From Klebsiella phage KP13-26, in the sequence record OP617743.1: a stretch of DNA of 64,000 bases. One strand, written 5' to 3'. The position numbers and the translations under genes are program-made. This document shows, one piece after another, positions 4,614 through 35,523 of the stretch. The first letter of the stretch is position 1; the number at the start of each line of letters is the position of its first letter. The notes below the pieces were generated by a model, which was not told the origin of the DNA, ran no database searches, and saw only the letters and a list, made by a program, of their open reading frames with translations.

Positions 4614-4868
4614 TCAGCAGGTTACAGTAAATGGATTACCTGGGGTATAAGGTATTTGTGGATTCTTCCAGATATCCTCGATTTGCTGTTTCCAAATTTC
4701 CCTTAGCTTTGTCACATCTGGATCAATGCTTTCATTAGGAACATCTGTTTCCACCTTAATAATTTCTTCTGACACCAAAATCTCTTTGGCTAGCTCAAGG
4801 TTGTCTGTCTCGATAGTGGTTTCTTTAGTCACTTCACCGACAGTTTCTTTGATTGTTATTTTGTACAT
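4614..4868 (-). CDS. hypothetical protein
   Basis: 84-aa ORF. Confidence 0.45.
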   Translation of the reverse strand: MYKITIKETVGEVTKETTIETDNLELAKEILVSEEIIKVETDVPNESIDPDVTKLREIWKQQIEDIWKNPQIPYTPGNPFTVTC

Positions 4869-5605
4869 TAGTCTTCCTCTAAAGTTGAATAAAACTTAAC
4901 CGTTCCTTGCTCATCAAACCAACTAAATGTCAGATTATTGTTGAAACAAGACCCGGTATCCATATATATACGATTAGCATTCATTAATGGCTTTGGTACA
5001 TAAGAGTGTCCATGAAATACATAGTCTACGCCTAATACTTTAGGCAAAGAAATCCCCTCCTGAGCACAGGAAATCATATCTCTATCCCACATTAAAGACT
5101 CTGCAAAAATATCTTCCTTTTCCTTGGATAATCCCAAATTAGGTATCTCTGTTACTGGTAAATATTCATAAGCAGAAGGATAACCTCCATGTATAAATGC
5201 TAACTTTTTACCTCTATGTTCTACTACTAGAACAACGGGGAGATTTTCTACCATTGTTGCCAATAAACTAACACCATCTTCCCCAAGCTCACTCCAAACA
5301 GTATGACCACCATTCTGATACCAACATTCATAATAATCTCTACTGCCTTCTAACATGCCTCTAATTAGCATATCTTCATGATTACCACGGATAGCAAAAC
5401 GGTTAGACTTACGTGTGAATTCAATTACACATCGCAGATTTTGTTTACCCCTGTCAGTAAGATCTCCGAGAGAAATAACATAATCTGTATCTCTAATTCC
5501 TAGAACTCTTTCTCCTTTTTTATAGAGATCGTAACATCCATGTAAATCCCCTATGATAAATAAATCTTTATCATCCTCCAATTTAATAAATTCATAAAGT
5601 TTCAC
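4868..5605 (-). CDS. Ser/Thr protein phosphatase (calcineurin-like metallophosphoesterase, lambda-PPase type)
   Basis: GDLHG, GDLTDRG and GNHE motifs present. Confidence 0.85.
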   Translation of the reverse strand: MKLYEFIKLEDDKDLFIIGDLHGCYDLYKKGERVLGIRDTDYVISLGDLTDRGKQNLRCVIEFTRKSNRFAIRGNHEDMLIRGMLEGSRDYYECWYQNGGHTVWSELGEDGVSLLATMVENLPVVLVVEHRGKKLAFIHGGYPSAYEYLPVTEIPNLGLSKEKEDIFAESLMWDRDMISCAQEGISLPKVLGVDYVFHGHSYVPKPLMNANRIYMDTGSCFNNNLTFSWFDEQGTVKFYSTLEED

Positions 5606-6196: not shown

Positions 6197-6427
6197 TTAA
6201 CTAGTAACATCTACCTCAGTACTTCCTTCCGTAGGAGATATTACAGTACACCTGGTTGCCATATAAGAAACATTCCAACCATTTGGAGAAGTTTCTATTA
6301 AAACCCTATCTTTTGCGATAAACTGGATATAATCAAGTGCTTCTCGCATAGATAAGAACGTTTTTGTAATTTGTTCTTCGTGCAATGATTCCATAGGTCT
6401 CCTCAACTTATTTCTAATTTGTGACAT
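6197..6427 (-). CDS. hypothetical protein
   Basis: 76-aa ORF. Confidence 0.4.
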   Translation of the reverse strand: MSQIRNKLRRPMESLHEEQITKTFLSMREALDYIQFIAKDRVLIETSPNGWNVSYMATRCTVISPTEGSTEVDVTS

Positions 6428-7065
6428 AAACGTTGTACTGCTTTTGCATCGAAAGCTGCGCCTCTTATTGTTTTTTTGCCTGCCTCATTTAACCTTTTTG
6501 AAATAGTTAAAAATGGCATGTTTTGAGACCTGTATGCAGTTAACAATGGTTTAAATTCTTCTGCCCACTCCAAGGAGTACTTAGTATGTTCCTTCTTCGA
6601 GTAATCTGTTCTATGGTATTTTTCATTAGCAGCGCCTAAGAGAGTACCTTTCTCTTTAGCTACTTTTAAACTTTTCTTTACACGATCAGAGATTCCTTTT
6701 GCTTCCTCTTCTGCAAGAACTGCAAGAATATTAATGATCATGTTTTCTGCGGAGGGCATCGTAGCTACACGCACTTGTATCATTTCCAATAAAGCCGCAA
6801 CGGAGGCTGTGTTACGTCCTAAACGGTCAACCTTAGCAACAACTAAGGTGGCTCCTGTTTGCTTACATAGGTTAACAGCTTTAACAAGTTCCCTACGCTG
6901 ACGCCAGTCGCCTTTACCCGTGTAGTACTCAGCAAAACTACCAATAACAGTACAATCTTCTTGAGTATCAAGAAATCTTTGAATGTCAATCTCTTGAGCT
7001 TCAATACCGTATTGATTACCTTGTTGTTTTCTTTTAGATAGACGATGATAAAGTACGTATTTCAT
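6403..7065 (-). CDS. serine recombinase (resolvase/invertase family)
   Basis: N-terminal YHRLSKRKQ (YxRxSxxxQ) with a catalytic Ser; TGATLVVAKVDRLGRN box; ILAVLAEEE element. Confidence 0.7.
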   Translation of the reverse strand: MKYVLYHRLSKRKQQGNQYGIEAQEIDIQRFLDTQEDCTVIGSFAEYYTGKGDWRQRRELVKAVNLCKQTGATLVVAKVDRLGRNTASVAALLEMIQVRVATMPSAENMIINILAVLAEEEAKGISDRVKKSLKVAKEKGTLLGAANEKYHRTDYSKKEHTKYSLEWAEEFKPLLTAYRSQNMPFLTISKRLNEAGKKTIRGAAFDAKAVQRLCHKLEIS

Positions 7066-8525: not shown

Positions 8526-9152
8526 TTAGTTGTCTACACTACTCGATGTGTCTGTCTCATCTGAGCCTTCGGCTAGAATTCTATCCCCTTCTTCACCATC
8601 AGGGCTACCTGTAAGGAGCAGATTTAAAAGTTGTGCTCGGGTGAATCCACGGAGATCCTCGTCAGTAATATCCACAGGAACTTTTTGCTCTTCTATGAAG
8701 GTATCTCCTCCAGAAAAAGCATCTCTAAGTTTAGCTACATCCATTGCTACCTCTGGTGTAGCGCCACTATCCAGTGCTGCTAAAGCGTAATCCGCTCCAC
8801 TTCCTACAGCGTAGTATTCAGCTTCTATTGGCATTGCACGTGCTGGATTATTTCCTTCGTGAATAAAAATTTTACCATCAGGATGAACAACAAGCGCCAC
8901 AAATTCTTCATCTTCTTTATCTGGGTCAGATTGAATCATTAACCCCGGAATAGCTTCTTGTGCAGCCTGACATTGTAGATTTTGTTCAAACCAAGAGAAA
9001 AAAGTTAAAATAGAAGATAAACGCCCTGCACCACCCACAAGATAATCACCAATTTTTCTTACTTTTTTAAAGTTGTATTGATCTACTCTGGAGCCTACAG
9101 TCACTTTACCATCACTAAGGATTTTATTTCTTGTTGCAATAATTGTTGTCAT
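8526..9152 (-). CDS. HslV-like (proteasome beta-type) Thr peptidase with an acidic C-terminal tail
   Basis: ATG at 9152 with a CAGGAGGAG SD yields an N-terminal MTTIIATR (Thr nucleophile); KKVRKIGDYLVGGAG and AVGSGADYALAA align with HslV. Confidence 0.65.
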   Translation of the reverse strand: MTTIIATRNKILSDGKVTVGSRVDQYNFKKVRKIGDYLVGGAGRLSSILTFFSWFEQNLQCQAAQEAIPGLMIQSDPDKEDEEFVALVVHPDGKIFIHEGNNPARAMPIEAEYYAVGSGADYALAALDSGATPEVAMDVAKLRDAFSGGDTFIEEQKVPVDITDEDLRGFTRAQLLNLLLTGSPDGEEGDRILAEGSDETDTSSSVDN

Positions 9153-9153
9153 A

Positions 9154-9645
9154 TTATTTCTCCTCCTGAAGTGTTTTAAGAACAGCTTTGCCACCATTGG
9201 TATATTTTCTTAAATAATCAATGGCTCGCAATGTTTCTTTATCTACTGTTATTTTACTGGATACTGCCAGAGGATGATTCAGTAAATCACTGCATTCTCT
9301 CACTAGCAAAGACTTTTTATGGAATATATTACTTAAGAACAATAGTTTACTCTCTTCTTCGTCCAGGAGAAGAAGCTCAGGAGTTGAGCCTGCTATCTCT
9401 ATTATACACTCAAGTAAGCTCCCATTACTATCAGAAAGTTCTTGATAGTAGCTTAAAATATAATTTTTATTTGTAATCCACGATAAAAACATTTTAAATT
9501 TTTGTCTTAAAGTCAGATTTTCTAATCTTAAAGATATTTCCTGCTCAATAAGATTACTACAAATTTGTCTAAACTCATTGGGTTTTACTAACCCTGCTTG
9601 ATAACACTCGTCTATTCCATTCTTATCAATCTCAACAAAAACCAT
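9154..9645 (-). CDS. hypothetical protein
   Basis: 163-aa ORF. Confidence 0.45.
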   Translation of the reverse strand: MVFVEIDKNGIDECYQAGLVKPNEFRQICSNLIEQEISLRLENLTLRQKFKMFLSWITNKNYILSYYQELSDSNGSLLECIIEIAGSTPELLLLDEEESKLLFLSNIFHKKSLLVRECSDLLNHPLAVSSKITVDKETLRAIDYLRKYTNGGKAVLKTLQEEK

Positions 9646-9683: not shown

Positions 9684-10439
9684 TCACTTATAAACGTCTG
9701 TCATCAACTTAGAAAGACGAGAACGTTTGTTTTCATCCGAGGACATTTCTACATAACCGATAAAGTCTACGATAGGTTGTCTATCACCATACTCATCTTC
9801 TGGTACGAGATGGTCTAGAAGATCTTTTAGACCATTAGGACGTTTCTTAATAGCATATGTTTGCCTAATATCTCCAAGAACAACAACGTGAGTATTAATA
9901 CCCGCTCGCTCAACGAGAAGTTTTAAAGTATCCGGCGACATGAGCTGTGCTTCATCAATTAAAACAATGGAGTTATCCAAGGTGGCACCAAGCATGTAGT
10001 TCGGAATATTAAGCTCAATCTTACCAGAAGAAATATCATTTTCTAGCTTATTCGCGGTCATGAACTGCTGGAAGATGCGTTTCGTTGAATCATAGTGGGC
10101 TGCCAGTTTGTCTGTTTTATCTCCTGATAAAAAACCAATCTGGTCATCACCGACTTCCGTTGGATTTTTAAGGAAGATAAGTTTACGATAATCTCCTGCA
10201 CGGAGCATTTGTAGTGCTTTCCATAGGGCTGTGGATGTTTTACCAGTACCTGCTGGGGCAGTAACGATAGTCAAATCATTCCACACCATACTATGTACAA
10301 TATCTTGTTGCGCTTCGGTAGGATAAAATTCGTCTAAACGATAGTCATCATTTCCTACAGCCTTTTGTGCGTAGCGACTTTCGCGTTTATCATTGTTTGC
10401 TAACTCTTGACGACGAGTTTTTGCTGGTTTATTTCCCAT
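9684..10439 (-). CDS. phoH: PhoH-like ATPase
   Basis: Walker A APAGTGKT, DEAQ box and the KNPTEVGDDQIGFLSG motif. Confidence 0.85.
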   Translation of the reverse strand: MGNKPAKTRRQELANNDKRESRYAQKAVGNDDYRLDEFYPTEAQQDIVHSMVWNDLTIVTAPAGTGKTSTALWKALQMLRAGDYRKLIFLKNPTEVGDDQIGFLSGDKTDKLAAHYDSTKRIFQQFMTANKLENDISSGKIELNIPNYMLGATLDNSIVLIDEAQLMSPDTLKLLVERAGINTHVVVLGDIRQTYAIKKRPNGLKDLLDHLVPEDEYGDRQPIVDFIGYVEMSSDENKRSRLSKLMTDVYK

Positions 10440-11134: not shown

Positions 11135-11401
11135 TTACTCCGCAATCTGAGCCATGAATTCACGTAGTTCTGTAAAACCTCCTACGTGTTTATAGTCCAC
11201 GTCAGCATCTTCCTGTACTAGAATCTGAGGAAAAGTGCGTGGTGGAACTCCTGTTTTCTCTATGACCACTGCTTGCATGTGGTCTAGAGAATAATCTTCA
11301 TCCAAGGTAAGATATTTAAAATCCTGACCTCTCATCTCCAACAGTTGTTTAGCCATGTTGCAGAATTGGCAGTCAGGTTTACCGTAGATTACAAAATTCA
11401 T
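11135..11401 (-). CDS. nrdC: glutaredoxin (NrdC-like)
   Basis: CQFC redox motif and a C-terminus resembling T4 NrdC. Confidence 0.8.
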   Translation of the reverse strand: MNFVIYGKPDCQFCNMAKQLLEMRGQDFKYLTLDEDYSLDHMQAVVIEKTGVPPRTFPQILVQEDADVDYKHVGGFTELREFMAQIAE

Positions 11402-12240
11402 TCTCTCTCCTTATTTAATAGAACTTTCAGTGATTCATTAATACCGCAGACTACTGGTTTTGGATTCAGAAAGCCTTTGGTTTCAAGATAAGATTTAGCA
11501 GGACGTGGTGCCTTGGAATTATATTGCGAAGCAGATATTGGATTCACTTTAACTGTCGTATCTATTTCGCAGAAAATAGTTGTCGCGAAATCATACCAAC
11601 TTAAATAGTCCTTGCCTGCATAATGAAAAATACGAGCACCAACCCCATACTCCAGCATGGCAAAGATCATCTCGGCAAGGTAAGGAGCATATGTTGGACA
11701 AGAGTAATGATCACAGATAACATCAAACTCCCGCTGACCTGCGTTATAACGACCTAACAATGTTTTTAGGAAGTTATTACCGAACTCACTGTATACCGAA
11801 GCAGTACGAATAATTAAAGCTCCCGGATGAATGGCATGAACTAACTCTTCACCAAAACGTTTGGAATAACCATATACATTTAGAGGATTGGTTGGAGCAC
11901 CTTCGATACCAGGGAATGAACCATCAAAAACATAATCAGTCGAAATGTGGATTAAGTCAATGTGCAATTCGCTACAAATTTTAGCAATGTTAGCCGCACC
12001 ATAAGCATTTACATCTAAAGCTGCTTGAATGTTATCTTCTGCTTTGTCAACATCTGTGTAAGCTGCACAGTTAATAACTGCATCTGGCATCTCATCAATA
12101 ATCAAGTTACGGATTTGCTCAAAATTGGTAATGTCGCTGCGTTTACGATCAGGTCTGATGAGTTCCACGTCATCGGGTTTCACTTTCTTAAGTGCTTGGC
12201 CTAATTGTCCTTGCGCTCCCAATACTAAGTAACGTTTCAT
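11398..12240 (-). CDS. rmlD: dTDP-4-dehydrorhamnose reductase
   Basis: Rossmann GAQGQLG; STDYVF and NxYGxSK motifs; aligns with RmlD. Confidence 0.85.
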   Translation of the reverse strand: MKRYLVLGAQGQLGQALKKVKPDDVELIRPDRKRSDITNFEQIRNLIIDEMPDAVINCAAYTDVDKAEDNIQAALDVNAYGAANIAKICSELHIDLIHISTDYVFDGSFPGIEGAPTNPLNVYGYSKRFGEELVHAIHPGALIIRTASVYSEFGNNFLKTLLGRYNAGQREFDVICDHYSCPTYAPYLAEMIFAMLEYGVGARIFHYAGKDYLSWYDFATTIFCEIDTTVKVNPISASQYNSKAPRPAKSYLETKGFLNPKPVVCGINESLKVLLNKERE

Positions 12241-12824
12241 CCAAAGATCTCCCTTAACGTTTTAGCCTCTCGGTCTTTTTGGGACAAGATAGGCTTAAAG
12301 TAGTCATCATTAAAGATGAGGTCAAATCCCCAATCAACAGCCACATCTGGATCATTCCAAGCGAGGCTACGCTCTGACGTAGGATCGTAATATTCAGTGC
12401 ATTTGTACTCGAAGTCGGCAGTATCAGAAACCACAACGAAACCGTGGGCGAAGCCTGGTGGAATCCAGAACTGCACCTTGTTTTGTTCGCTAAGTACCAC
12501 ACCCTCCCACTCCCCAAAGGTCGGACTACCTTCACGCAAATCAACAGCTACGTCAAAGACCATGCCACTTGTGCATCGCACCAACTTACCTTGAGGATTT
12601 GTTTCTTGATAGTGGAGTCCACGCAGGACTCCTTTTGAAGAACGAGAATGATTGTCTTGAACAAATGTATATTTTCCAATAAGAGTATCATAACGAGCTT
12701 GATTAAAAGATTCTAGAAAAAATCCTCGGTCATCAGCAAATACTCTAGGTGTGATTATTAGGAGACCTTCAATACCTGTCTCTCTTACGTTATGAGTATT
12801 CTCCACTGTTACCCCTCTTACCAA
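12237..12824 (-). CDS. rmlC: dTDP-4-dehydrorhamnose 3,5-epimerase
   Basis: RGFFLESF ... RGLHYQ cupin motifs. Confidence 0.85.
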   Translation of the reverse strand: MVRGVTVENTHNVRETGIEGLLIITPRVFADDRGFFLESFNQARYDTLIGKYTFVQDNHSRSSKGVLRGLHYQETNPQGKLVRCTSGMVFDVAVDLREGSPTFGEWEGVVLSEQNKVQFWIPPGFAHGFVVVSDTADFEYKCTEYYDPTSERSLAWNDPDVAVDWGFDLIFNDDYFKPILSQKDREAKTLREIFG

Positions 12825-24634: not shown

Positions 24635-25357
24635 TTAGCCTACAATACTTTTAATATCAGGTTTAGAAAAGGTAGAAGGTTTCATGATCTTACCTTTATC
24701 ATCAAAAAACACATAGACTTTTTGTTTCTCATTGTAGGTGGCATGTACACCAATGTACGCACCTTCTGAACGATCCTTATTACGCTCCTCGATTGCAGCA
24801 CATTCTTGTGCAATAGCAAACTCAATATCCTTAGTCTCCCACACTGCCAGAAGCTGTTTGCGAGTTGGGTATTTCGAGTCATTACTACGTAATACCTCTT
24901 TAAGAACTTTTTTGTAGTTGTACTTAGAACGGACTAGAGTGTCTCTTGCCATGCGTAGCATAGCTATAGTAAGAGGGATAATTTGTGCATCGGTTGACAT
25001 TTCTTTCTCATATAAAAGAAATTCATCATACACTGCTTCAGGGAAAACATCACCAACACCTGTGCTTAAAATCTTTTCGAGATTTTCTTCACTAGTAAAC
25101 ATAAAAGTTAGGTAACTAGCTACTACAAAAACATCTGCGGCAGCATCTAAAAGTTCAACATGATCGTTAATCTTCGCAGCATCTTGAAATTCTTTCAACT
25201 CTTCTCTGACATATCCTAACTGTGCAATAAACATTTCATTGGTAAACTCAGGAGTTTCTCCTCCTCGTGCTTTAGCATTCCATGCAATAACATGTTTAGC
25301 AGCGTCAATGAAAAATTGATTATCGGCTTTAATAGGTTTATAAAAATCTGTAATCAC
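24635..25357 (-). CDS. MazG-like nucleoside triphosphate pyrophosphohydrolase domain protein
   Basis: REELKEFQDAAK ... ELLDAAADVFVV resembles the MazG EExxE/DxxD helix; GTG start with an AAGGAG SD. Confidence 0.4.
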   Translation of the reverse strand: MITDFYKPIKADNQFFIDAAKHVIAWNAKARGGETPEFTNEMFIAQLGYVREELKEFQDAAKINDHVELLDAAADVFVVASYLTFMFTSEENLEKILSTGVGDVFPEAVYDEFLLYEKEMSTDAQIIPLTIAMLRMARDTLVRSKYNYKKVLKEVLRSNDSKYPTRKQLLAVWETKDIEFAIAQECAAIEERNKDRSEGAYIGVHATYNEKQKVYVFFDDKGKIMKPSTFSKPDIKSIVG

Positions 25358-25555: not shown

Positions 25556-26674
25556 TTATTCGGCAGGTTCCCATGTCCCGTCGATCATCTCTCTTAGACG
25601 AACACCAACTGGTTTCGTAGGAATCCCGGCGTCAGATAATTCTTCATATTCAATTTCTACAAATTGATCGATAAGTTGGGAAGCGTTATCGGCTTTGCGG
25701 TAGTTAATGGTCGGATGTGAATCTTTCCTCATCAGGAATTCCACAATCTTATCATCTTTTGTAACCCCTGTCAACACCCCATCACCATTTTTATCAACAG
25801 TCATACCCGTTACTTTTACTTCCATGTTGCCACGAGGTTTACGTTTGATAACGTCATAGGAACGTTTACCGAACTCATACATACCGTCTTCGTTGCGATA
25901 CACGATACCTTCGGCTTTATCTTCCAAAGCTTTTTCATAAAAAGCGTCTAACTGCTCTTGGTTTTCAATGTACTCAGAATGCACAACATGAATAAGGTCT
26001 TCTAAGCCAGCTTGTACAACCATCTCTGCTAAGTCTTTCAAGAACTCTACACGCTTCTTGAATGGTAGATCTGGTACAGGAATATCATATACGTAGTAGC
26101 CTAACTGCTCAGTGATACCAGCCTTATACTTCTTCCATGCTCCATTGATGACTTGCAGACTCAGAACACCCAAGCCAGCAAACACTTCACCATCTAAAGG
26201 ATACCCAAAATCTTCCTGAATGAACTCAGGAATTTTAGTCCAGTGTTCAGGAAGTGTATACACTTCACCAGCTTTTGATAGGCATTCACCATCATCGTTA
26301 AGCATAGAACGTAAACCATTCAACTTGTATTGCGCATACCCTGGGAAACGCACTTTATGAGAGAAGTCCTTATAATCCTGACACTTCATCGGTGTAAAGG
26401 GTTCGTGATCTTGTGCTTCCTCAATGGTGTGGTAATATCCTCGTTTAAGCTGCTTCGTCCATTTTGCCAAAGCTTCTAATTCCGCTTGCTCTTCTGGTGT
26501 AGTTTCATTAGATCGACCAACATTTTTAGCTTCGGCTTCATAGGACTTCGTAGTAATCTTTCCACCAAGACGACCATGACCAACTGTAACAGTTGCACCA
26601 TCCGTATAGACAGACCATTCTTTAATATTACCTTTGGTGTCTTTACCATACAATGTAGGATTTAATTGCAGCAT
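25556..26674 (-). CDS. ATP-dependent DNA ligase (T7-like)
   Basis: Motif I KLNGLR (KxNG variant), motif III LDGEVF, motif IV EGIVYR, motif V KRKP; C-terminal OB region. Confidence 0.7.
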   Translation of the reverse strand: MLQLNPTLYGKDTKGNIKEWSVYTDGATVTVGHGRLGGKITTKSYEAEAKNVGRSNETTPEEQAELEALAKWTKQLKRGYYHTIEEAQDHEPFTPMKCQDYKDFSHKVRFPGYAQYKLNGLRSMLNDDGECLSKAGEVYTLPEHWTKIPEFIQEDFGYPLDGEVFAGLGVLSLQVINGAWKKYKAGITEQLGYYVYDIPVPDLPFKKRVEFLKDLAEMVVQAGLEDLIHVVHSEYIENQEQLDAFYEKALEDKAEGIVYRNEDGMYEFGKRSYDVIKRKPRGNMEVKVTGMTVDKNGDGVLTGVTKDDKIVEFLMRKDSHPTINYRKADNASQLIDQFVEIEYEELSDAGIPTKPVGVRLREMIDGTWEPAE

Positions 26675-27501: not shown

Positions 27502-27906
27502 CTACTGTAATTTTAAGGAATTACGCAAACGTTTTTCTTGAGTATCACGAATATTCTGTGGAACATCGTGGATAGAGTTATTCCCATGACGGTTTTCTAC
27601 AACTAAGCTTACCACCTGATATTCGTACTCTTCTGCTAAATCCAGATAAGGAGTAAGTTCTTTCTCCGTGGTGGATGTATTAGATACGATAATCTTGAGG
27701 AAACCCTGTTCCATCGCTTCCTTTACCTTATCTTGGCACCATTTATGTGCTGCATGAACATTCTCAGGTTTCCAATCGTAAACACCATCCTCAGTGTAAT
27801 GAAATTTGTCTGCTTCACAGACAGGCCACAAATCTTCTGCCAACATATCTGCCACTGTGGACTTACCAGCACCAGACACACCACGTAAAATAATAAGTCT
27901 TTTCAT
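27502..27906 (-). CDS. pnk: polynucleotide 5'-kinase (T4 Pnk kinase-domain-like P-loop kinase)
   Basis: LRGVSGAGKST Walker A; overall similarity to the T4 Pnk kinase domain; no HAD phosphatase domain. Confidence 0.7.
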   Translation of the reverse strand: MKRLIILRGVSGAGKSTVADMLAEDLWPVCEADKFHYTEDGVYDWKPENVHAAHKWCQDKVKEAMEQGFLKIIVSNTSTTEKELTPYLDLAEEYEYQVVSLVVENRHGNNSIHDVPQNIRDTQEKRLRNSLKLQ

Positions 27907-28826
27907 TATTTCTCCCTCTCAAAGTACGTTTCGATTTTCTCTCTCCGAACTTGGGAATCTAAAGCTTTCCATTCTTCTTTTTCAAAAGCGAAACGTAGCC
28001 ACTCTAGCAGTGAATAGTATTCTTCGTCAATACGTTTCCTTGCTTCTTGTGGATTATCCCAAATCATATCCCATTTATTATCCCCTCCGCGCATCAGGAA
28101 TTTTTTCGCCAAGTAATGTGGAGATTTGATTTTCATAAGAAGTTCGCTGTTTTCTTCATCTGTTCCGATATTACGGATGACATAACCCTCATGCTGGACA
28201 TGCTGGACATTATAGACCACATCACCAAAAGGAACAACACCCCATGTAGGGCGCTTTGCGCCAATAACCTCAGCAATACGATCAAGCTTATGTTCTTCCA
28301 CCATAACACCGTTCAAAGCAAGGTCACGGACACCAATAAGATATGCCCCTTCTTCCTCATCTATAATGTGCGGATCACTTCTATCACAGATTTCAAAGAT
28401 AAATGTGAAATCCTCTGGAAACGCCACACGGTCAAACTTAAGTTCGTCAAGATGTTTCCGTGCAAGAGTGGAGAACTCGGAATCCAAGGTTCCTGTTGTT
28501 GACACAAGAAGTTTTTCACCACGTACCGCAGCAGTTGCCATAAATCCATTGACTTTACGAACGCACACAACCTGCTGATCAAGTGGTAAGTCTGTTCCAT
28601 TTTCAAAACGATTGAAAATCTTCGTGAAAGGCCAGATAATAACATTATCTTCTGCATCAACAACCATCCCACGGCATTCCAGCAAACGTTGGTCTGTATG
28701 CCATAGGTTATCCCAGAACACATTGTTCTTATATTTAAGAACAGACAGTCCCGCGTATGGGCCATCAATATAAGTCTTTTTCGTGACTAATTTTTTAGCT
28801 ACCAAGTCATCGACATTAAATTTCAT
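27906..28826 (-). CDS. rnl: RNA ligase, Rnl1 family
   Basis: LLECRGMVVD ... WPFTKIFN ... RKVNGFMA parallels T4 Rnl1 ALECRGIMFE ... EKFFN ... KEDGSL (nucleotidyltransferase motif I). Confidence 0.7.
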   Translation of the reverse strand: MKFNVDDLVAKKLVTKKTYIDGPYAGLSVLKYKNNVFWDNLWHTDQRLLECRGMVVDAEDNVIIWPFTKIFNRFENGTDLPLDQQVVCVRKVNGFMATAAVRGEKLLVSTTGTLDSEFSTLARKHLDELKFDRVAFPEDFTFIFEICDRSDPHIIDEEEGAYLIGVRDLALNGVMVEEHKLDRIAEVIGAKRPTWGVVPFGDVVYNVQHVQHEGYVIRNIGTDEENSELLMKIKSPHYLAKKFLMRGGDNKWDMIWDNPQEARKRIDEEYYSLLEWLRFAFEKEEWKALDSQVRREKIETYFEREK

Positions 28827-28828
28827 AA

Positions 28829-29377
28829 CTATTCCTCAATCTTTTTATGGTGATCGATTACCTTCACGTCGCGCGTATCCATAATCTCAATAACTTCATC
28901 GAAATGAATTATTTTACCAACAGCATCCCAACCAACATCCATCATCTTTCCGAATAAATGGTCTGGAAAACTTCCATGTGAGTGCCCATGTAAATGAATT
29001 GAACCACGGCCTTGTTTATTCCATGACGCAATAGGATAGTGACAAAGAACAAAAAATTTCTTTTTATACTTCACCTCTTCATAATACTTCACTTCACCGT
29101 ACTTTTCAAGAACTTCACGGTGTTTTGAGTAATCATGATTCCCAACGATAAAGGTAATCTCACCGTTTAAACGGGAAGCAATGAAATCTGTTTCTTCTGG
29201 CGTACCAAAACAGAAATCTCCAAGATGATACATTTTTGTGCCAGGTGTTTTTGCTTTTTCGTTCCAAGCCGCAATAAGAGCCTCTGTCATCTCTTCCATA
29301 GTTTCCCACGGTCTAAAATTAGGAGCAAACTCCTTGATACGTTTATGCATGAAATGCAGGTCACTTGTCAAATACAT
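28829..29377 (-). CDS. metallophosphoesterase (candidate 2',3'/3'-phosphatase of the RNA-repair cassette)
   Basis: DLHF ... GDF ... GNHD ... HLHGHSHG metallophosphoesterase motifs. Confidence 0.7.
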   Translation of the reverse strand: MYLTSDLHFMHKRIKEFAPNFRPWETMEEMTEALIAAWNEKAKTPGTKMYHLGDFCFGTPEETDFIASRLNGEITFIVGNHDYSKHREVLEKYGEVKYYEEVKYKKKFFVLCHYPIASWNKQGRGSIHLHGHSHGSFPDHLFGKMMDVGWDAVGKIIHFDEVIEIMDTRDVKVIDHHKKIEE

Positions 29378-29736
29378 TAATATAGTCCCTCGCTAAATAG
29401 GTCACGGTGATGACCGTTTCTTTCATAGTTAATCTGATTGGCTGCTTCTGCGATGATATACGCATCTTCGCGACTCCACCAATTATAATACTGATCAATG
29501 AAGCCTTGATCATCAGGAAGACACCAACCTTTCTCCAACAAACCAGCATCCATTAGAACTTTTATCTGTTGGGATAATACCGGATTTGTGTGTCTGACAC
29601 ATGGTACAACCAATTCTTCCCCAGTTGTCAGGATGTATTTGTTAGCCGCACATACAATAACACGTTGAGCGTAAGTCTCTTCGTCATGAATCCAATAGAG
29701 ATGTTGGTAGCAAATATTATCTTTCATCATGATCAT
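29377..29736 (-). CDS. hypothetical protein
   Basis: 119-aa ORF. Confidence 0.45.
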   Translation of the reverse strand: MIMMKDNICYQHLYWIHDEETYAQRVIVCAANKYILTTGEELVVPCVRHTNPVLSQQIKVLMDAGLLEKGWCLPDDQGFIDQYYNWWSREDAYIIAEAANQINYERNGHHRDLFSEGLY

Positions 29737-30216: not shown

Positions 30217-30558
30217 TCAATAGTGTTTACGAATCAGTTCAATACCGTAACGAGCAAGATGCTCCTTTGCCAGCATGAATTTCTGTGCAGCAGATGGATT
30301 GGATGTATGCACATAGATACTCTGCAAACCTTTAAAACCTCCCGCAGCAATCATGCTCTCCAGTCTGGTGAATACATAATATCCATCGTACCCAGGGCCG
30401 AGGTCATTGTCAAAGTGAATTTCAGTCACTTCGTTTGTAATGCCTTTGAACTGAAGATTCATGTACAAACTCCAGATGCCTTGTGCGGATTTAACCCAGA
30501 TAGCTTCTGGGTAGCCGTAGTCTTTAGGATCACGTAAATCATCAAGCCAAATTCTCAT
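30217..30558 (-). CDS. hypothetical protein (MRIWLDDLRDP ...)
   Basis: ATG overlapping the upstream TGA (ATGA); conserved-looking acidic pocket (IWLDD, FDNDLGPG). Confidence 0.5.
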   Translation of the reverse strand: MRIWLDDLRDPKDYGYPEAIWVKSAQGIWSLYMNLQFKGITNEVTEIHFDNDLGPGYDGYYVFTRLESMIAAGGFKGLQSIYVHTSNPSAAQKFMLAKEHLARYGIELIRKHY

Positions 30559-30710
30559 ACCTTTTGCACCCAACCTTTTTCGATTAGGATATCGAAGATA
30601 GGCATATGCTCGTTATATTCCAAGACATCGCCTACCTTGTGTGCGCCAAGGATTGACAAAGCAATATGGTAGTTGTCAAACGCTCGGATATCAGTGATAC
30701 GTAGTTTCAT
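30555..30710 (-). CDS. small protein (51 aa), missed by the ORF track
   Basis: GGAGG SD; stop/start ATGA overlap with the downstream gene. Confidence 0.3.
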   Translation of the reverse strand: MKLRITDIRAFDNYHIALSILGAHKVGDVLEYNEHMPIFDILIEKGWVQKV

Positions 30711-31631: not shown

Positions 31632-31930
31632 TTCTCCTCACAAACAAGTTGTAGTTGTCGTTCCAAGGGAATCTTGTTCCCAAATTGGAAGTTGATTAAT
31701 TTGCAATCAAGGTCGATGATCTGATTACGATCCAAACCAACTACCTTAACAGAGTTACCAACGTACCACTCTACGTGGTCGAAGTCAAGCATTGTATTTG
31801 CTTTTTCTAAGATAAACTCCAATTGCTTCCATTCCACCGACATATCATCGTCATGGAAAGCAGCACAGAAAGCTTCACCGTTATAGAATCCGCGAAGCTC
31901 TCCTATCAAAGTTGTATGTGTAAAGTCCAT
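31628..31930 (-). CDS. hypothetical protein
   Basis: 100-aa ORF. Confidence 0.45.
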   Translation of the reverse strand: MDFTHTTLIGELRGFYNGEAFCAAFHDDDMSVEWKQLEFILEKANTMLDFDHVEWYVGNSVKVVGLDRNQIIDLDCKLINFQFGNKIPLERQLQLVCEEK

Positions 31931-31948
31931 CAGACCTCCTGTATCGCG

Positions 31949-32089
31949 TTATGAGCCGTTTTCTTTCTCTGGATGATAAACCACTAGCCGTGGCTTGTCA
32001 ATGCCCTCACGGAGCGTTCTACGGCGTGATGCACCACCTCTCTTATACTTAGGTGTGAGGTCTTTTACTTGGTCTAAATTAATTTTCAT
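31949..32089 (-). CDS. small basic protein (about 46 aa), first gene of the leftward block
   Basis: AAAGGAGAAAA-ATG; R/K-rich. Confidence 0.35.
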   Translation of the reverse strand: MKINLDQVKDLTPKYKRGGASRRRTLREGIDKPRLVVYHPEKENGS

Positions 32090-32377
32090 TTTTCTCCTTT
32101 GCAGTATTGACTTTTGTTTTTATATATGCTACCCTAAACACGAAGTTCGCCGAGCGAAGCGAGGGGAGATTCTAGTGTTTGTTATGTGTATATACTATAT
32201 GTATTGTACAGAGTATCATAGATCTGTTATGTTACTCAATGACAGTACTATAGTATAAGTAGATTATATAATCAATAATTAATTTACTATTAATTAATTA
32301 TTAATTTATAAATAACTATTGACCTATGGTGTCTAGCTATGTACACTAGCGTCTATCAACTAAAGAAGGAGAAAGAT
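32090..32377. promoter_or_regulatory. AT-rich divergent control region (start of leftward and rightward transcription; possible origin)
   Basis: No ORFs; >80% A+T with tandem TTAATT repeats; TTGACC-N17-TACACT on the plus strand; flanked by genes on opposite strands. Confidence 0.5.
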
Positions 32378-32593
32378 ATGCCAAACATGAGTTATTGTAT
32401 GTTCGAGAACACATCGAATGATATGCAAGATATCATCAACAAGATGTATGAAGATGATTTCACACCTTCACAGCTATCCCCACGTGAGCGTAGAGCCTAT
32501 GATGCTCTCTGGGAACAGGCTGAGGCAATCCTTGATCGTCTGAGTGAAATTGAAGCAATGGAAGAAGCGGAGGAGGAAGAAGATGAAGATTAA
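32378..32593 (+). CDS. hypothetical acidic protein
   Basis: AAGGAGAAAGAT-ATG; acidic EEEEDED tail. Confidence 0.5.
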   Translation: MPNMSYCMFENTSNDMQDIINKMYEDDFTPSQLSPRERRAYDALWEQAEAILDRLSEIEAMEEAEEEEDED

Positions 32594-33476
32594 TGTTATT
32601 GACCAGTGGGGTCACGATAATGATATTCCAGTAAAGGTGTTCACCTTCTCCGGTGGTGAAGTGCATGTGAAGATTGATATGGAGGCTTTCAAATCTTCTT
32701 TCATTGACTTAACTACTATTCAAAAAGTAGAAGTTCACCAAGATATCCGTTCCTCAGATGATTTTATGGCTGTGGTAATGGTGAAGGATGCTTTGGACGA
32801 AATCTTACGATTCAATCCAAAACCGATTGAACTGTTTTCCCTATACGTTCCGTATGCACGACAAGATCGTTACTGCGAGAAAGGAGAAGCCTTTGGTGTG
32901 AAATCTTTCGCTCGTCTTCTGAACAGCTTGGAGTTCTCTCGTGTAGTGGTGGCTGATCCACACAGCGAAGTGACCCCAGCAGTGATTACCAATCTGGATG
33001 CCATTCCTCAAGATGAGATTGCTTTCCATGCTTTGAAATGGAAACTTCGTATGGAGCATTTTGAGTTGGTTAGCCCAGATGGTGGAGCATTGAAGAAAAT
33101 CTTCAAACTGGCTAAACGTATGGGGCTTCCTGTGCATTGTGCAGATAAGATTCGTGATACGGCTACTGGAGACATCATTCGCACGGATATCAGTGTGCAA
33201 GACTTCCACGGTGCAAACCTTATGATTGTGGACGATATTTGTGATGGCGGGCGCACGTTCATTGAGCTAGCTAAGGTACTTCGTGAACGCAATGCTGGGA
33301 AGATTGAATTATATGTTACCCACGGTATTTTCTCTAAAGGTGTAGATGTGTTTGATGGGTATGTTGACTGCATTCACTCATTTAATGTGTGGGACAACAA
33401 TGTGCAGGATACAAACATAAAAGGTCTTCTGGTGATCAATCAGGAAGAAGTACAACGGCAGGTTATTTCTAAATAA
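32583..33476 (+). CDS. prs: ribose-phosphate pyrophosphokinase (PRPP synthetase)
   Basis: FSGGEVHVKID, PYARQDR and PRPP-binding DDICDGGRTF motifs; GGAGGAAGAAG-ATG. Confidence 0.85.
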   Translation: MKINVIDQWGHDNDIPVKVFTFSGGEVHVKIDMEAFKSSFIDLTTIQKVEVHQDIRSSDDFMAVVMVKDALDEILRFNPKPIELFSLYVPYARQDRYCEKGEAFGVKSFARLLNSLEFSRVVVADPHSEVTPAVITNLDAIPQDEIAFHALKWKLRMEHFELVSPDGGALKKIFKLAKRMGLPVHCADKIRDTATGDIIRTDISVQDFHGANLMIVDDICDGGRTFIELAKVLRERNAGKIELYVTHGIFSKGVDVFDGYVDCIHSFNVWDNNVQDTNIKGLLVINQEEVQRQVISK

Positions 33477-33759: not shown

Positions 33760-35523
33760 ATGGAAATTTTTGCACCGTTTGCTGCTGATTGGTATAAACC
33801 TGGTCACAAGCCGATGTACAACCAGAACACAAAGCTGATCTTCTCTAACCTGACACCACGTAATGACAAAAACTTTGCTCATTACGCTGATAAGAACGCT
33901 CGTGGCGTTATTGTCTTGGGTCTGCGCCGCATGGTAATGGACTCAATGGTTGGAATCTGGAAGAAATTCTTCAAGATGAAGCGTGAAGCTGCCGTGAAGA
34001 AATTTGCTCGTATGTCCAAAAACGCACTTGGCGCTGCTGCACCATCAGCAGAATGTTGGGGTGAACTTCACGATCTGGGTTATCTGCCAGTTGAAATCCG
34101 CGCTCTGCCGGAAGGTATTCTGTCACCGATTGGTATTCCGGTGTATACCATCCATAACACCGTAGAGAAATTCTTCTGGGTGACTAACTACATCGAAACA
34201 CTTATGTCAACCGAAAGCTGGAAAACGATCACCAACGCAACCGCTGCGTTCCAGTATAAGCGTGTGGCAATGTCCTACGCCCTGGCAACCTGTGACAACG
34301 TGGATCACGTTAACTTCCAGTGTCATGATTTCAGTCTGCGTGGTTTGTCCAACATAGAAGACGGGTATAAGAGTGGCATCGCTCACTTAGCGTCGTTCAC
34401 TGGTACAGATAACATTCTGGCTATTGAAGCTGTCCACGAATACTATGGTATTGATGACGACCAGTTTGTAGCTGGTAGTATCCCTGCTTCTGAACACTCA
34501 GTGGCAACTACCAATATCAGTCGTATCGTAAAAGACTTGGAAGAGCACTTCCCTCACTTAGCAGGGGATGTAGATGGTCTTCGTTATCTGGCTGAGAAGG
34601 AATTCCTTCTGACTTTCATCCGAGACATTGTGCCGGAAGGTTTCTGCTCTTATGTTGCAGACTCTTACGATTATTGGGCTGTGCTGACTAGTATTCTACC
34701 GGAACTGAAAGAAGAAATCATGATGCGTAATGGTCGTTTGGTTGTTCGTCCTGATTCTGGTGATCCGGTGAAAGTTGTTGCTGGTTATTATGTAGCAACA
34801 CAAGATGAATGGGTGAATAACTCCGCAACTGTACCTGCGATTGAAGCAGTATTGTTCAGGAACGGTAAATATGTGAGTATGGAGACTTTAGCCAAAGATA
34901 CTTCTTGGATGCGAGATTCCGAAGGTAACGTTGTAGATTTTAATGCGTTAACTGGTGATGAATTCTCAGACTTTGTTCCAGAACATGAAATCAAAGGTTC
35001 TATCCAGATCCTGTGGGAAATCTTCGGTGGTGAAGTGAATAACAAAGGCTACAAAGTGCTGGATAGCCACATCGGCATGATTTATGGAGATTCCATCACT
35101 GTTAAACGTGAAATTGAAATCCTGAAACGCTTGAAAGCAAATGGTTTTGCTTCTTCAAACATCGTATTTGGTGTTGGTAGCTTCACCTATGAGTTTAACA
35201 CTCGTGATACCTTTGGTATTGCTGTGAAAGCTACTGGCTGCTTCATTGACAATTACGAAATCATGGTGAGCAAAGAACCGAAAACAGATCCAAGTAAACG
35301 CTCTGCGAAAGGATTCATCAAGGTTGTTCGTAAAGATGGTATCCTGCATCAAGTGGATAACATCTCGTTTGAAGAGATCAATGATGAAGATAACCTGCTT
35401 CAACCCATCTTCCGTAATGGAAATGTGTTGATTCCCCAGGTGAACGGTCGGGACGAAGATTTCAACGATATCCGTGCTCGTCTGGATAAAGAGGTTATGA
35501 ATCATTTGATTGAAGTGAAATAG
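33760..35523 (+). CDS. nadV: nicotinamide phosphoribosyltransferase (NadV/NAMPT family)
   Basis: 587 aa of the NAPRTase/NAMPT family (GTDN, SGDP regions); adjacent to prs. Confidence 0.8.
   Translation: MEIFAPFAADWYKPGHKPMYNQNTKLIFSNLTPRNDKNFAHYADKNARGVIVLGLRRMVMDSMVGIWKKFFKMKREAAVKKFARMSKNALGAAAPSAECWGELHDLGYLPVEIRALPEGILSPIGIPVYTIHNTVEKFFWVTNYIETLMSTESWKTITNATAAFQYKRVAMSYALATCDNVDHVNFQCHDFSLRGLSNIEDGYKSGIAHLASFTGTDNILAIEAVHEYYGIDDDQFVAGSIPASEHSVATTNISRIVKDLEEHFPHLAGDVDGLRYLAEKEFLLTFIRDIVPEGFCSYVADSYDYWAVLTSILPELKEEIMMRNGRLVVRPDSGDPVKVVAGYYVATQDEWVNNSATVPAIEAVLFRNGKYVSMETLAKDTSWMRDSEGNVVDFNALTGDEFSDFVPEHEIKGSIQILWEIFGGEVNNKGYKVLDSHIGMIYGDSITVKREIEILKRLKANGFASSNIVFGVGSFTYEFNTRDTFGIAVKATGCFIDNYEIMVSKEPKTDPSKRSAKGFIKVVRKDGILHQVDNISFEEINDEDNLLQPIFRNGNVLIPQVNGRDEDFNDIRARLDKEVMNHLIEVK

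Follow-up and report, generated by a model that had tools for sequence, protein, structure and literature searches.

Phage T4 repairs tRNA-Lys that has been cut by PrrC, using Pnkp and the RNA ligase Rnl1 (PMC10946426). In the bacterial Pnkp/Hen1 system (Clostridium thermocellum Pnkp, CthPnkp) and the Capnocytophaga Pnkp1-Rnl-Hen1 complex, a Pnk-type kinase and an ATP-dependent RNA ligase are combined with a binuclear metallophosphoesterase (MPE) that heals the 3′ end (PMC2190708, PMC4411300). Both CthPnkp and lambda phosphatase hydrolyse 2′,3′-cyclic phosphates (PMC2190708). A sirtuin-centred type 2 neighbourhood, found in Escherichia phage V5 and Proteus phage Mydo, was described by Iyer, Burroughs, Anantharaman and Aravind in 2022, and was predicted to function in RNA repair (PMC9503650). 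The cassette considered here is already known from this rV5/Mydo version, and also from phage phi92, where gp096 is annotated as 'RNA ligase / RNA repair' and gp097 as 'phosphoesterase'.

The window (the whole 64-kb stretch of DNA that was analysed) carries the cassette as three adjoining, co-oriented ORFs on the minus strand, exactly where the initial annotation had placed them. These genes, and the others discussed below, are:

nt 29377–28829, minus strand: metallophosphoesterase (MPE), 182 aa
nt 28826–27906, minus strand: Rnl1-family RNA ligase, 306 aa
nt 27906–27502, minus strand: small P-loop kinase of the Pnk/AAA_33 type, 134 aa
nt 29377–29736, minus strand: 119-aa ORF of the phi92 gp098 family (phrog_839, 1.2e-43), function unknown
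nt 30217–30573, minus strand: cREC domain protein, ~113–118 aa (Pfam cREC_REC PF20274, 1e-13; phrog_1479, 8.2e-26)
nt 26674–25556: ATP-dependent DNA ligase, 0.8 kb downstream of the cassette
nt 25357–24635: MazG-type pyrophosphatase gene
nt 5605–4868: another gene of the window, matching lambda phosphatase (1g5b) at 1.9e-29

The packing of the cassette is operon-like and its three genes are translationally coupled: two bases separate the MPE stop codon from the ligase ATG, and the ligase stop codon shares a TAATG with the kinase start codon. The motifs quoted in the initial annotation are all present, namely GNHD and HLHGHSHG in the MPE, ECRG, KIFN and K-V-N-G in the ligase, and the P-loop GVSGAGKST in the kinase. 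The more distant elements that it had associated with the cassette were also located: a tRNA array (24 genes nearby), a pair of NadV-like and Prs-like genes and, as the Ro60-like gene, one specifying a DUF2828/DUF7788 protein that weakly matches the Ro60 vWA domain. Scans of the window ORFs against Pfam and PHROGs returned no Hen1-type methyltransferase domain.

By sequence and by predicted fold, the middle gene codes for an ATP-dependent RNA ligase of the Rnl1 family (T4 Rnl1/fungal Trl1-LIG type). The protein matches Pfam RNA_lig_T4_1 (PF09511; 4.4e-10, 40.2 bits against a cutoff of 28.3) over model positions 1–226 of 227, as well as phrog_562 (3.8e-61), and is 79% identical to the Mydo ligase. 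Homology to T4 Rnl1, initially described as clear, holds at the profile level (a 26-sequence family profile finds 2c5u at E = 1.1e-11) but not at the level of single sequences, as a phmmer search of the PDB missed T4 Rnl1. The nucleotidyltransferase motifs are invariant in 26 ligase homologs (K91-x-N93-G94, F144-E145, Y162-L-I-G165, E213-G214 and K232-x-K234). In the alignment with T4 Rnl1, invariant R52, K69, F71, K91 and G94 pair with R54, K75, F77, K99 and G102, and invariant E145, E213, G214, K232 and K234 with E159, E227, G228, K240 and K242; the motif I lysine (K91) and motif IV glutamate (E213), which the initial annotation had singled out for checking, are thus both kept. Upstream of motif I, R52 lies within ECRG and K69 and F71 within TKIFN, aligning with LECRG and EKFFN of T4. 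Mutagenesis in the Shuman laboratory reportedly found T4 R54, K75 and F77 to be essential. The T4 residues that pair one-to-one with the ligase invariants are those essential to T4 Rnl1, and none of the catalytic residues of T4 Rnl1 is missing from the window ligase. K91 in motif I (K-V-N-G) is the predicted adenylylation site, and this motif has the KxNG form of fungal Trl1 rather than the KxDG form of T4 (KEDG). An AF2 model of the ligase (pLDDT 90.1) gave Trl1 LIG as the top Foldseek match in the PDB (6n0t, 9e-12), followed by T4 Rnl1 (9do4/2c5u, 5.3e-11), with Rnl3 ligases close behind. Residues 236–305 are all-helical in the model and form a C-terminal domain of ~70 aa, compared with ~120 aa in T4, where the helical C-terminal domain has been implicated in tRNA specificity. 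The profile alignment ends at T4 residue 271 and detects no sequence similarity between the C-terminal region and the T4 Rnl1 C-terminal domain.

The last gene of the cassette specifies a predicted 5′-OH RNA kinase of a minimal Pnk type. It matches Pfam AAA_33 (1.7e-10), phrog_2071 (3.1e-57) and phrog_505, 'polynucleotide kinase' (3e-9), and the best PDB matches to the family profile are mostly polynucleotide kinases, including Capnocytophaga Pnkp1 (7.9e-5), CthPnk (1.1e-4, full length) and T4 Pnk (3e-3). The initial annotation likened the protein to the kinase domain of T4 Pnk, and the AF2 model (pLDDT 90.1) bears this out: T4 Pnk (1ly1, 1.2e-6, TM 0.77; 1ltq, TM 0.80) and CthPnk (4jt2, TM 0.78) are the best Foldseek matches in the PDB, while gluconokinase and adenylate kinases give lower TM values. 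Matches also include the Mucorales kinases 9d8a and 9drz. Within the P-loop (G9-VSGAGKS-T17), G12, G14 and K15 are invariant and position 16 is S/T. Invariant D33 fits the position of the general base, Cth D38 (T4 D35), with the printed HMM alignment offset by one residue; the role of this aspartate in Pnk has been described (PMC3902929). Invariant N76-T77 aligns with Cth A79-T80 (T4 T86, the Thr anchoring the first phosphodiester), and invariant R106 with the lid arginine Cth R116. Where Cth has R120 and R123, the family has residues other than Arg (N/K, and an invariant H113). The resemblance has one clear gap, at the acceptor arginine (T4 R38/Cth R41, at Asp + 3), which is essential in T4 and Cth Pnk. 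None of the 25 aligned members has Arg at this position; most have His, as does the window kinase (His36). A family-specific invariant arginine, R8, might compensate.

Its sequence places the first gene product among the binuclear metallophosphoesterases, in a clade with Aquifex aq_1665. The protein matches Pfam Metallophos (6.7e-7; PF00149, 30.4 bits against a cutoff of 21.5) and phrog_547 (3.8e-56). All six metal-binding motifs (DxH, GD, GNH[DE], H, GH and GxH) are intact, and their ligands are invariant across 26 homologs (D6-x-H8, G53-D54, G79-N80-H81, H113, G131-H132 and H134); D82 is kept in at least 90% of them. The only strong relative in the PDB is the uncharacterised aq_1665 (1xm7; 1.5e-8 by single sequence, 7.9e-22 by profile), and the next match to the family profile is GpdQ at 0.06. 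This profile search retrieved neither the CthPnkp phosphatase (4j6o) nor lambda phosphatase (1g5b), with which no relation is detectable past the superfamily motifs. The cassette MPE lies outside the CthPnkp/lambda-phosphatase clade. We predict that the enzyme heals 3′ ends, acting as a 2′,3′-cyclic phosphodiesterase and/or a 3′- or 2′-phosphatase.

The initial annotation held that the three genes act together, and this claim draws support from more than adjacency, i.e., from synteny, matching distributions and natural fusions. Synteny was assessed for 84 ligase loci, representing 42 clusters at 70% identity. Within 1.5 kb and on the same strand, a kinase gene was found in 63 of the 84 loci and an MPE gene in 65. 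By cluster, and counting either strand, the kinase is present within that distance in 34/42, the MPE in 36/42 (often abutting the ligase) and both in 30/42. Sir2 was found near the ligase in only four clusters, and cREC in three, all from enterobacterial Vequintavirinae/Stephanstirmvirinae lineages. The conserved core across phages is accordingly kinase-MPE-ligase, with Sir2 and cREC as lineage-specific additions. A survey of 50,697 phage records located the ligase in 693 of them and the kinase in 621, with near-identical counts by genus; the cassette family is carried by phages of Escherichia, Klebsiella, Pseudomonas, Vibrio and Acinetobacter, among other hosts.

Fusion proteins join the same activities. 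The best 150 ligase-family representatives include 12 kinase-ligase, three ligase-kinase and one MPE-ligase protein, and kinase-ligase ORFs of ~430 aa were found at nine IMG/VR loci. The existence of both domain orders lends indirect support to the predicted role of the kinase. There are also 23 proteins of 700–812 aa, of which 13 were tested: 12 have the arrangement AAA_33-Metallophos-RNA_lig_T4_1, and the thirteenth lacks only an AAA_33 match at E ≤ 1e-4. The ligase domains of these bacterial trifunctional proteins (~750 aa) belong to the window ligase family (profile E = 1e-78 to 1e-91). P0434 (767 aa, from the MAG GCA_023270075.1, a cellular genome), for instance, has a kinase domain and an MPE domain homologous to those of CthPnkp (4e-13 and 3e-14, respectively), whose healing activities have been characterised biochemically. 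These trifunctional fusions carry a CthPnkp-type MPE, which the cassette MPE profile fails to detect.

Two upstream neighbours differ in their relationship to this core. The cREC gene lies on the MPE strand, ~0.85 kb upstream of the MPE, and its real start is likely the ATG at nt 30558 (MRIWLDD...). A role for cREC has been predicted by Iyer et al. (PMC7824862, PMC9503650); here it is probably an accessory cyclic phosphodiesterase, and the module probably extends upstream to include it. The 119-aa ORF in between has a stop codon that runs into the MPE start (TAATG). It could be expressed together with the cassette, but with its family in only 4 of the 84 ligase loci it does not count as a conserved member. 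It has no Pfam or PDB match. Some GenBank records give its family the putative label 'anti-restriction nuclease'.

Family membership, the intact active sites of the three enzymes, operon-like packing, conserved linkage and the fusions were computed directly. We consider it probable that the three genes form a module for healing and sealing RNA ends, most likely those of RNAs (e.g., tRNAs) cut by host defence nucleases. The counter-defence role is suggested by analogy with the action of T4 Pnkp and Rnl1 against PrrC, and the RNA substrate, the order of steps and the activity of the MPE on RNA ends are likewise inferred. The tRNA genes, Ro60-like gene and NAD-salvage (NadV/Prs) pair in the vicinity fit this reading. 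A host ribotoxin or anticodon nuclease would cleave a tRNA or some other essential RNA to produce ends with a 2′,3′-cyclic phosphate and a 5′-OH. The cyclic phosphate may first be opened by cREC, after which the MPE would take off the 3′-terminal phosphate to give a 3′-OH, and the Pnk-like kinase would transfer a phosphate from NTP to the 5′-OH. The ligase would then adenylylate itself on K91, pass the AMP to the 5′-phosphate and join the ends. A literature search found no biochemical or genetic test of this ligase, kinase or MPE family.

Other divisions of labour between these enzymes were considered. The repair unit could consist of kinase and ligase alone, with the MPE an independent counter-defence or nucleotide-metabolism phosphodiesterase that shares the early-gene cluster and, for example, degrades cyclic-nucleotide or ADP-ribose-derived immune signals. 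Its family is about twice as widespread as the ligase (1241 records compared with 693) and extends to phages of Staphylococcus (119), Enterococcus (75) and Bacillus (39), genera absent from those listed for the ligase, although the matches in these Gram-positive phages are confined to the N-terminal half, and a different subfamily may be involved. An aq_1665-type MPE was not seen in any fusion, the extension of a 300-aa MPE homolog (P0343) contains no P-loop, no MPE gene lies within 8 kb at the kinase-ligase fusion loci, and the closest solved structure (1xm7) is of a protein without known function. An independent MPE nevertheless seems unlikely: 36 of the 42 ligase clusters have it no more than 1.5 kb away, and in the window it ends just two bases ahead of the ligase ATG. 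Moreover, a different MPE clade is fused to the same ligase family in bacteria, and this ligase family therefore works with an MPE. A second possibility is that the kinase and MPE heal DNA ends (3′-phosphate, 5′-OH) for the nearby DNA ligase, leaving the RNA ligase as a bystander. T4 Pnkp acts on DNA ends too, an ATP-dependent DNA ligase gene lies 0.8 kb downstream in the window and within 8 kb in 39 of the 84 loci, and the MPE weakly matches PdeM, a ligase-associated DNA-damage endonuclease (TIGR04123, E = 0.001). The PdeM score is, however, far under the cutoff (18.5 bits against 150), and a DNA ligase is found within 1.5 kb in only 11 of the 84 loci, compared with 63 for the kinase and 65 for the MPE. 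The phyletic pattern of the kinase mirrors that of the RNA ligase, and among the fusions found the kinase or MPE is joined to an Rnl1-type RNA ligase and never to a DNA ligase, all of which makes healing of DNA ends very improbable.

The Trl1-like features of the ligase suggest an alternative chemistry, linked to NAD, in which cREC would open the cyclic phosphate to give 3′-OH/2′-PO4 ends, the KxNG ligase would seal these 2′-phosphate ends, and the MPE, replacing the sirtuin proposed for rV5/Mydo, would remove the 2′-phosphate or the ADP-ribose cyclic-phosphate by-product. The fungal form of motif I, the top fold match to Trl1 LIG and the presence of a cREC gene in the window are all consistent with such a route, as are the NadV-like and Prs-like genes, present no more than 8 kb from the ligase in 20 of the 42 clusters. 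NAD-dependent removal of 2′-phosphate has also been proposed for the sirtuin-containing relatives (Iyer et al. 2022, PMC9503650). Against this, scans of ~70 window ORFs with Pfam (~60 of them) or PHROGs detected no sirtuin, KptA/Tpt1, 2H or Macro domain, and a six-frame tblastn search of the window with two Sir2 proteins, from Mydo and pangalan, was negative. The arginines that bind the 2′-PO4 in Chaetomium Trl1 (R334 and R337) could not be mapped on the window ligase, and the NadV/Prs pair is better explained by the NARP1 NAD-reconstitution pathway. cREC and Sir2 are restricted to a few clusters (three and four of 42), whereas the triad is general. We regard the Trl1-like route as distinctly unlikely here.

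Returning to healing and sealing by all three enzymes, we would tentatively entertain, as less than an even prospect, that the triad is a distinct phage RNA-repair system, present in ~1.2–1.4% of sequenced phages, with a chemistry or substrate range unlike that of T4. It could possibly provide broad-spectrum repair of many tRNAs or other RNAs, or Trl1-like sealing of 2′-phosphate ends, and may be deployed together with NAD+ reconstitution (NARP1) against defences that degrade RNA and NAD.

Defences that disable infection by cleaving RNA or tRNA include PrrC, RloC, Cas13a and HEPN toxins, and PARIS and retron/PtuAB are also of this kind. Phage tRNA arrays are now seen as one answer to tRNA-cutting attack, and a widespread heal-and-seal module would be a second. 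The cassette family is carried by several hundred sequenced phages, including kinds used in therapy, and host range would be easier to predict if its effectiveness, and the nucleases it counters, were known. The initial annotation of the locus proved sound; the present analysis places its conserved core in the kinase-MPE-ligase triad, not in a sirtuin-centred set, and brings to light fusion proteins in which the three activities are joined. The clade of the MPE and the absent acceptor arginine of the kinase are two points at which the biochemistry might hold a surprise.

Compared with T4 Pnkp and Rnl1, the cassette is likewise phage-encoded, in a genome with a set of tRNA genes, and its predicted activities are the same (5′-kinase, 3′-phosphate removal and an Rnl1-family ligase). 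In the window the three genes form one cassette, unlike those of T4. A Pfam scan of the cassette found no HAD (DxDxT) domain; the kinase is a stand-alone domain of 134 aa, and a separate MPE gene takes the place of the HAD phosphatase of T4. The kinase also lacks an equivalent of R38 (having His36), and the ligase differs in its KxNG motif (KEDG in T4) and shorter C-terminal domain. CthPnkp and Capnocytophaga Pnkp1-Rnl-Hen1 share the enzyme logic, with CthPnkp a precedent for the replacement of the HAD phosphatase by an MPE. However, CthPnkp is one polypeptide and the cassette three proteins, the MPE of the cassette is of the aq_1665 clade, and the cassette ligase is Rnl1/Trl1-like; the CthPnkp ligase domain was neither retrieved by the ligase profile search nor among the top 50 fold matches. 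Fungal/plant Trl1 (LIG-KIN-CPD) resembles the cassette in the fold and KxNG motif of the ligase and in its coupling to a Pnk-type kinase. It differs in having a 2H cyclic phosphodiesterase and in requiring a 2′-PO4, later removed by Tpt1, whereas the window has an MPE and cREC, with no Tpt1/KptA or 2H detected. The bacterial trifunctional proteins, such as P0434, share the ligase family and the three activities, and have the domain order of CthPnkp, but they are single polypeptides of cellular genomes, with CthPnkp-type kinase and MPE domains only distantly related to those of the phage. The rV5/Mydo neighbourhood has a homologous T4-like tRNA ligase, cREC, a nucleotide kinase, a MazG-type pyrophosphatase and a calcineurin-like phosphoesterase. 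It is defined by its sirtuin, which was found neither in the 64-kb window (by the tblastn searches, or as a SIR2 Pfam match among ~60 ORFs) nor in three other phi92-like loci (L001, L002 and L010), while the phosphoesterase, 'occasional' in that neighbourhood, is a constant part of the cassette family.

The source phage is a phi92-like myovirus (Stephanstirmvirinae, Justusliebigvirus), and the records nearest to the window are those of Klebsiella phages KP2025 and FKP3, with about 92% nucleotide identity. The initial annotation described three contiguous, co-oriented RNA-repair genes, and minus-strand ORFs are present at exactly these positions, containing all of the motifs that it quoted:

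29377..28829, minus strand, metallophosphoesterase (MPE), ORF of 182 aa
28826..27906, minus strand, RNA ligase, ORF of 306 aa
27906..27502, minus strand, kinase, ORF of 134 aa

The packing is operon-like, with two bases between the MPE stop and the ligase ATG, and an overlap of the ligase stop with the kinase start (TAATG). The KP13-26 record labels the ligase protein as hypothetical. In the GenBank record of phi92, gp096 is a 'putative RNA ligase / RNA repair' protein, gp097 a 'putative phosphoesterase' and gp095, the kinase, is hypothetical. An Rfam search over 24-46 kb detected tRNAs only, and no structured RNA in the cassette. A promoter/terminator scan returned promoter-like sites at no more than chance frequency (22 observed vs 22.3 expected), so that the transcription unit is not delimited by them.

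Four independent lines of evidence (synteny, phyletic pattern, two-domain fusions and wider fusions) indicate that the ligase and kinase act together, and that the MPE probably does so with them. Synteny was assessed in 84 loci (80 from IMG/VR and four from GenBank), each encoding a ligase relative of 36-96% identity. Within 1.5 kb of the ligase and on the same strand, a kinase gene occurs in 63/84 loci and an MPE gene in 65/84. Single-linkage clustering at 70% ligase identity reduced the loci to 42 clusters. When either strand is allowed within the 1.5 kb, the kinase is present in 34 of these clusters and the MPE in 36, and 30 have the two together in one locus. A tblastn search of 50,697 phage records gave 693 with the ligase and 621 with the kinase, and the genus counts of the two are nearly the same (ligase and kinase, respectively: Escherichia, 199 and 198; Pseudomonas, 175 and 173; Klebsiella, 35 and 35; Acinetobacter, 24 and 24; Salmonella, 14 and 14; Aeromonas, 13 and 13). 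The MPE family was detected by tblastn in 1241 phage records, including those of Gram-positive phages, a spread about twice that of the ligase, this figure being the MPE record count and not a per-record overlap with the ligase.

Gene fusions extend this picture. At nine loci on IMG/VR contigs (L042-L045, L048, L049 and L055-L057), single ORFs of about 430 aa carry an AAA_33 domain followed by RNA_lig_T4_1; the phage group to which these loci belong has no cassette-type MPE within 8 kb. When the ligase profile was run exhaustively with HMMER against 1.84 billion representatives, 7887 relatives were returned at E <= 1e-3. The best 150 of these include 12 kinase-ligase and three ligase-kinase proteins (identified by the window kinase profile), one MPE-ligase protein and 23 proteins of 700-812 aa. 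The kinase of the two-domain fusions of about 420-490 aa is closely related to that of the window, and the longer fusion proteins match the window kinase profile weakly. Pfam analysis of 13 of the 23 long proteins showed the arrangement AAA_33-Metallophos-RNA_lig_T4_1 in 12, with the thirteenth missing only the AAA_33 match at E <= 1e-4. These trifunctional bacterial proteins include P0407, P0434, P0441 and P0467. P0434 is found in a bacterial genome context (locus L086, 8001-10304, MAG GCA_023270075.1), and both its kinase domain and its MPE domain show homology to the healing domains of the characterised kinase-MPE-ligase of Clostridium thermocellum, CthPnkp (4e-13 and 3e-14). The domain order of the trifunctional proteins is CthPnkp-like, but their ligase is of the Rnl1/Trl1-like family of the phage cassette. 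Hen1 is absent next to the trifunctional gene in the one context examined (L086), where the neighbouring genes specify a faintly HEAT-like protein and a DUF2201 protein. These fusions show that members of this ligase family recurrently share a polypeptide with a Pnk-type kinase and with a metallophosphoesterase.

The case for joint function is weakest for the cassette's own MPE: its clade is not that of the fused MPE in the trifunctional proteins, its family is more widely spread than the ligase, and no fusion involving it was found. Its profile matches none of the 150 best ligase representatives, and no P-loop was seen in the C-terminal extension of P0343, a 300-aa MPE homolog. In the cassette MPE family, every metal-ligand motif typical of binuclear metallophosphoesterases is invariant. 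The only clear solved relative is aq_1665, an uncharacterised Aquifex protein (PDB 1xm7), and membership in the CthPnkp/lambda-phosphatase clade, for which 2',3'-cyclic phosphodiesterase activity has been demonstrated (PMC2190708), was not detectable. The window also carries a second MPE (4868-5605, minus strand, 245 aa), a full-length homolog of the lambda Ser/Thr phosphatase (1g5b, E = 1.9e-29) that weakly matches the CthPnkp phosphatase domain as well (4j6o, 1.1e-4). This protein belongs to the clade with in vitro 2',3'-cyclic phosphodiesterase activity, yet its gene is 22 kb from the RNA ligase.

The ligase covers the entire Pfam model RNA_lig_T4_1 above the curated threshold. Its reported homology to T4 Rnl1 holds at the level of the family profile (built from 26 homologs with 48-86% identity to the query), which matches T4 Rnl1 with E = 1.1e-11; a single-sequence PDB search did not reach T4 Rnl1 and gave only a weak match to an Rnl3 (8uce, E = 0.02). 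Invariant residues R52, K69, F71, K91, G94, E145, E213, G214, K232 and K234 align with R54, K75, F77, K99, G102, E159, E227, G228, K240 and K242 of T4 Rnl1, the T4 numbers being obtained by counting along the profile alignment. The motif I lysine (K91) and motif IV glutamate (E213) are both kept, and mutagenesis of T4 Rnl1 has reportedly shown the residues aligned to the invariant positions to be essential. AlphaFold gave a model of high confidence (pLDDT 90.1), which among PDB folds best matches the ligase domains of fungal Trl1 (the tRNA ligase) and T4 Rnl1, closely followed by archaeal Rnl3. Motif I is KEDG in T4 Rnl1 but K-x-N-G in the phage ligase, which is the Trl1 form (PMC10946426). 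Residues 236-305, at the C-terminus, make up a helical bundle roughly half as large as the T4 Rnl1 C-domain, to which no sequence similarity was detected.

The kinase is assigned by Pfam to AAA_33. A single-sequence PDB search gave only weak gluconokinase matches and a profile was required; with one of 25 sequences, polynucleotide kinases make up most of the top matches, among them Capnocytophaga Pnkp1, the CthPnk kinase domain (over its full length) and T4 Pnk. The closest structures to the predicted model (pLDDT 90.1) are T4 Pnk (TM 0.77-0.80) and CthPnk (TM 0.78), and the likeness to the T4 Pnk kinase domain proposed in the initial annotation is borne out by both approaches. The P-loop lysine (followed by Ser/Thr), the general base D33, T77 (which anchors the first phosphodiester) and one lid arginine (R106) are retained. 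The acceptor-site arginine, essential in CthPnk (R41) and T4 Pnk (R38) (PMC3902929), is present in none of the members of the kinase alignment, most of which have histidine (His36 in the window protein). Because of this, the enzyme is a Pnk-like kinase missing one defining feature of canonical Pnk.

A gene for a cyclic-phosphate-processing receiver-like (cREC) domain is found about 0.85 kb upstream of the cassette on the same strand (PF20274, 1e-13). Aravind and colleagues predicted that cREC opens cyclic phosphates, and reported its operonic linkage to RNA ligases (PMC7824862, PMC9503650). The Mydo and rV5-like loci agree with the layout given by Iyer et al. 2022 (PMC9503650), and this neighbourhood shares with the window the ligase, cREC, kinase, MazG-like (25357..24635) and MPE genes. 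It differs in its sirtuin, which was found neither in the window nor in other phi92-like loci. Sirtuin, KptA, 2H and Macro partners were not detected in the window by Pfam (about 60 ORFs) or PHROG (further ORFs), tblastn with two Sir2 proteins gave no Sir2 homolog there, and the stretch between the kinase and the DNA ligase holds small ORFs only. Gene 136 of Escherichia phage pangalan (locus L004, 11037-11750) is labelled 'putative Sir2-like protein', but it proved to be homologous to the MazG-like pyrophosphohydrolase of the window (tblastn 1.3e-8); the label is likely a propagated misannotation. Among the sampled ligase loci, Sir2 occurs in 4/42 clusters and cREC in 3/42, in enterobacterial lineages only, unlike the kinase-MPE-ligase triad, which is general. 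The three genes of the initial annotation are therefore the conserved core, and what the sirtuin-centred description covers is a lineage-specific elaboration.

The cassette belongs, as a sound and ordinary case, to the phage RNA-repair gene sets that have been predicted computationally and annotated for years. Such systems were reportedly described by Burroughs and Aravind in 2016 (NAR), likely for the first time. No experimental study of the ligase, kinase or MPE family was found in the literature, and the available part of the HIDEN-SEQ report, which covers the rV5-like phage Bas54, contains nothing on the Bas54 ligase. What is new here is the quantitative evidence for the triad as a conserved core, together with the fusion proteins and the particular deviations of the MPE, kinase and ligase.

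The surrounding genes, namely the 24-tRNA array, a Ro60-like gene and a NadV/Prs pair, fit the counter-defence neighbourhood suggested initially but prove nothing. The Prs-like gene (32544-33476) and the NadV/NAMPT-like gene (33760-35523) are on the plus strand, divergent from the repair block, and probably represent the NAD+ reconstitution pathway NARP1 (Adps + Namat). In 20/42 clusters the ligase has a NadV homolog within 8 kb, and this is often just downstream on the same strand, as in Pakpunavirus-like loci. Identification of the cassette MPE with the 'phage phosphatase' of extended NARP1 was rejected, since that enzyme, Adpp, is a Macro-domain protein. The 476-aa protein encoded within the tRNA array (38247-39677, plus strand) matches DUF7788 (1.6e-52), DUF2828 (4.2e-23) and PHROG 850, 'RNA-binding protein' (2.4e-150); its Ro60 vWA match is sub-threshold (0.003), which leaves the Ro60-like label plausible but not established. 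One tRNA (37756-37830, plus strand), labelled 'Pyl' by ARAGORN, has a CUA anticodon and would read amber codons, and a 99-nt tRNA-like element upstream of the array (36207-36305, plus strand; Rfam 39.2 bits) was not called by ARAGORN. The GC skew changes sign at about 31900-32550, being negative as far as 32 kb and positive after it, at the switch from minus- to plus-strand genes. This point of divergent transcription separates the repair/replication block from the NAD/tRNA/structural block.

Directly upstream of the MPE is a 119-aa ORF of the phi92 gp098 family (29377-29736, minus strand; phrog_839), the stop of which overlaps the MPE start codon (TAATG). It has no Pfam or PDB match even at permissive thresholds, and relatives occur in only 4/84 ligase loci. 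Some GenBank records call the family 'anti-restriction nuclease', a label for which support was not found. Further away, RmlD-like dTDP-4-dehydrorhamnose reductase (1.2e-75) and RmlC-like 3,5-epimerase (9.4e-72) genes (11398-12824, minus strand) are unusual phage cargo, and nearby are genes for a serine resolvase (6403-7065), a proteasome-subunit-like protein (8526-9197) and PhoH (9684-10439).

The best-supported mechanism is a heal-and-seal pathway carried out by the MPE, kinase and ligase. The MPE would turn a 2',3'-cyclic or 3'-phosphate end into a 3'-OH, perhaps after opening of the cyclic phosphate by cREC, the kinase would phosphorylate the 5'-OH, and the ligase would be adenylylated on K91 and then seal the ends. 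A less likely alternative is a Trl1-like variant, in which ends bearing a 2'-phosphate are sealed; the ligase points to it by its KxNG motif and by its fold match to Trl1, although no candidate 2'-phosphotransferase is visible in the window. A role in DNA repair together with the adjacent DNA ligase is unlikely in view of the fusion partners of the kinase and MPE. The cassette deviates from known systems in three respects: the clade of its MPE, the missing acceptor arginine of its kinase, and the Trl1-like motif I of its ligase combined with a short C-domain. In biological role and ligase family its closest analogue is the tRNA repair pair of phage T4, Pnkp and Rnl1, and in its use of a metallophosphoesterase it is closest to CthPnkp.
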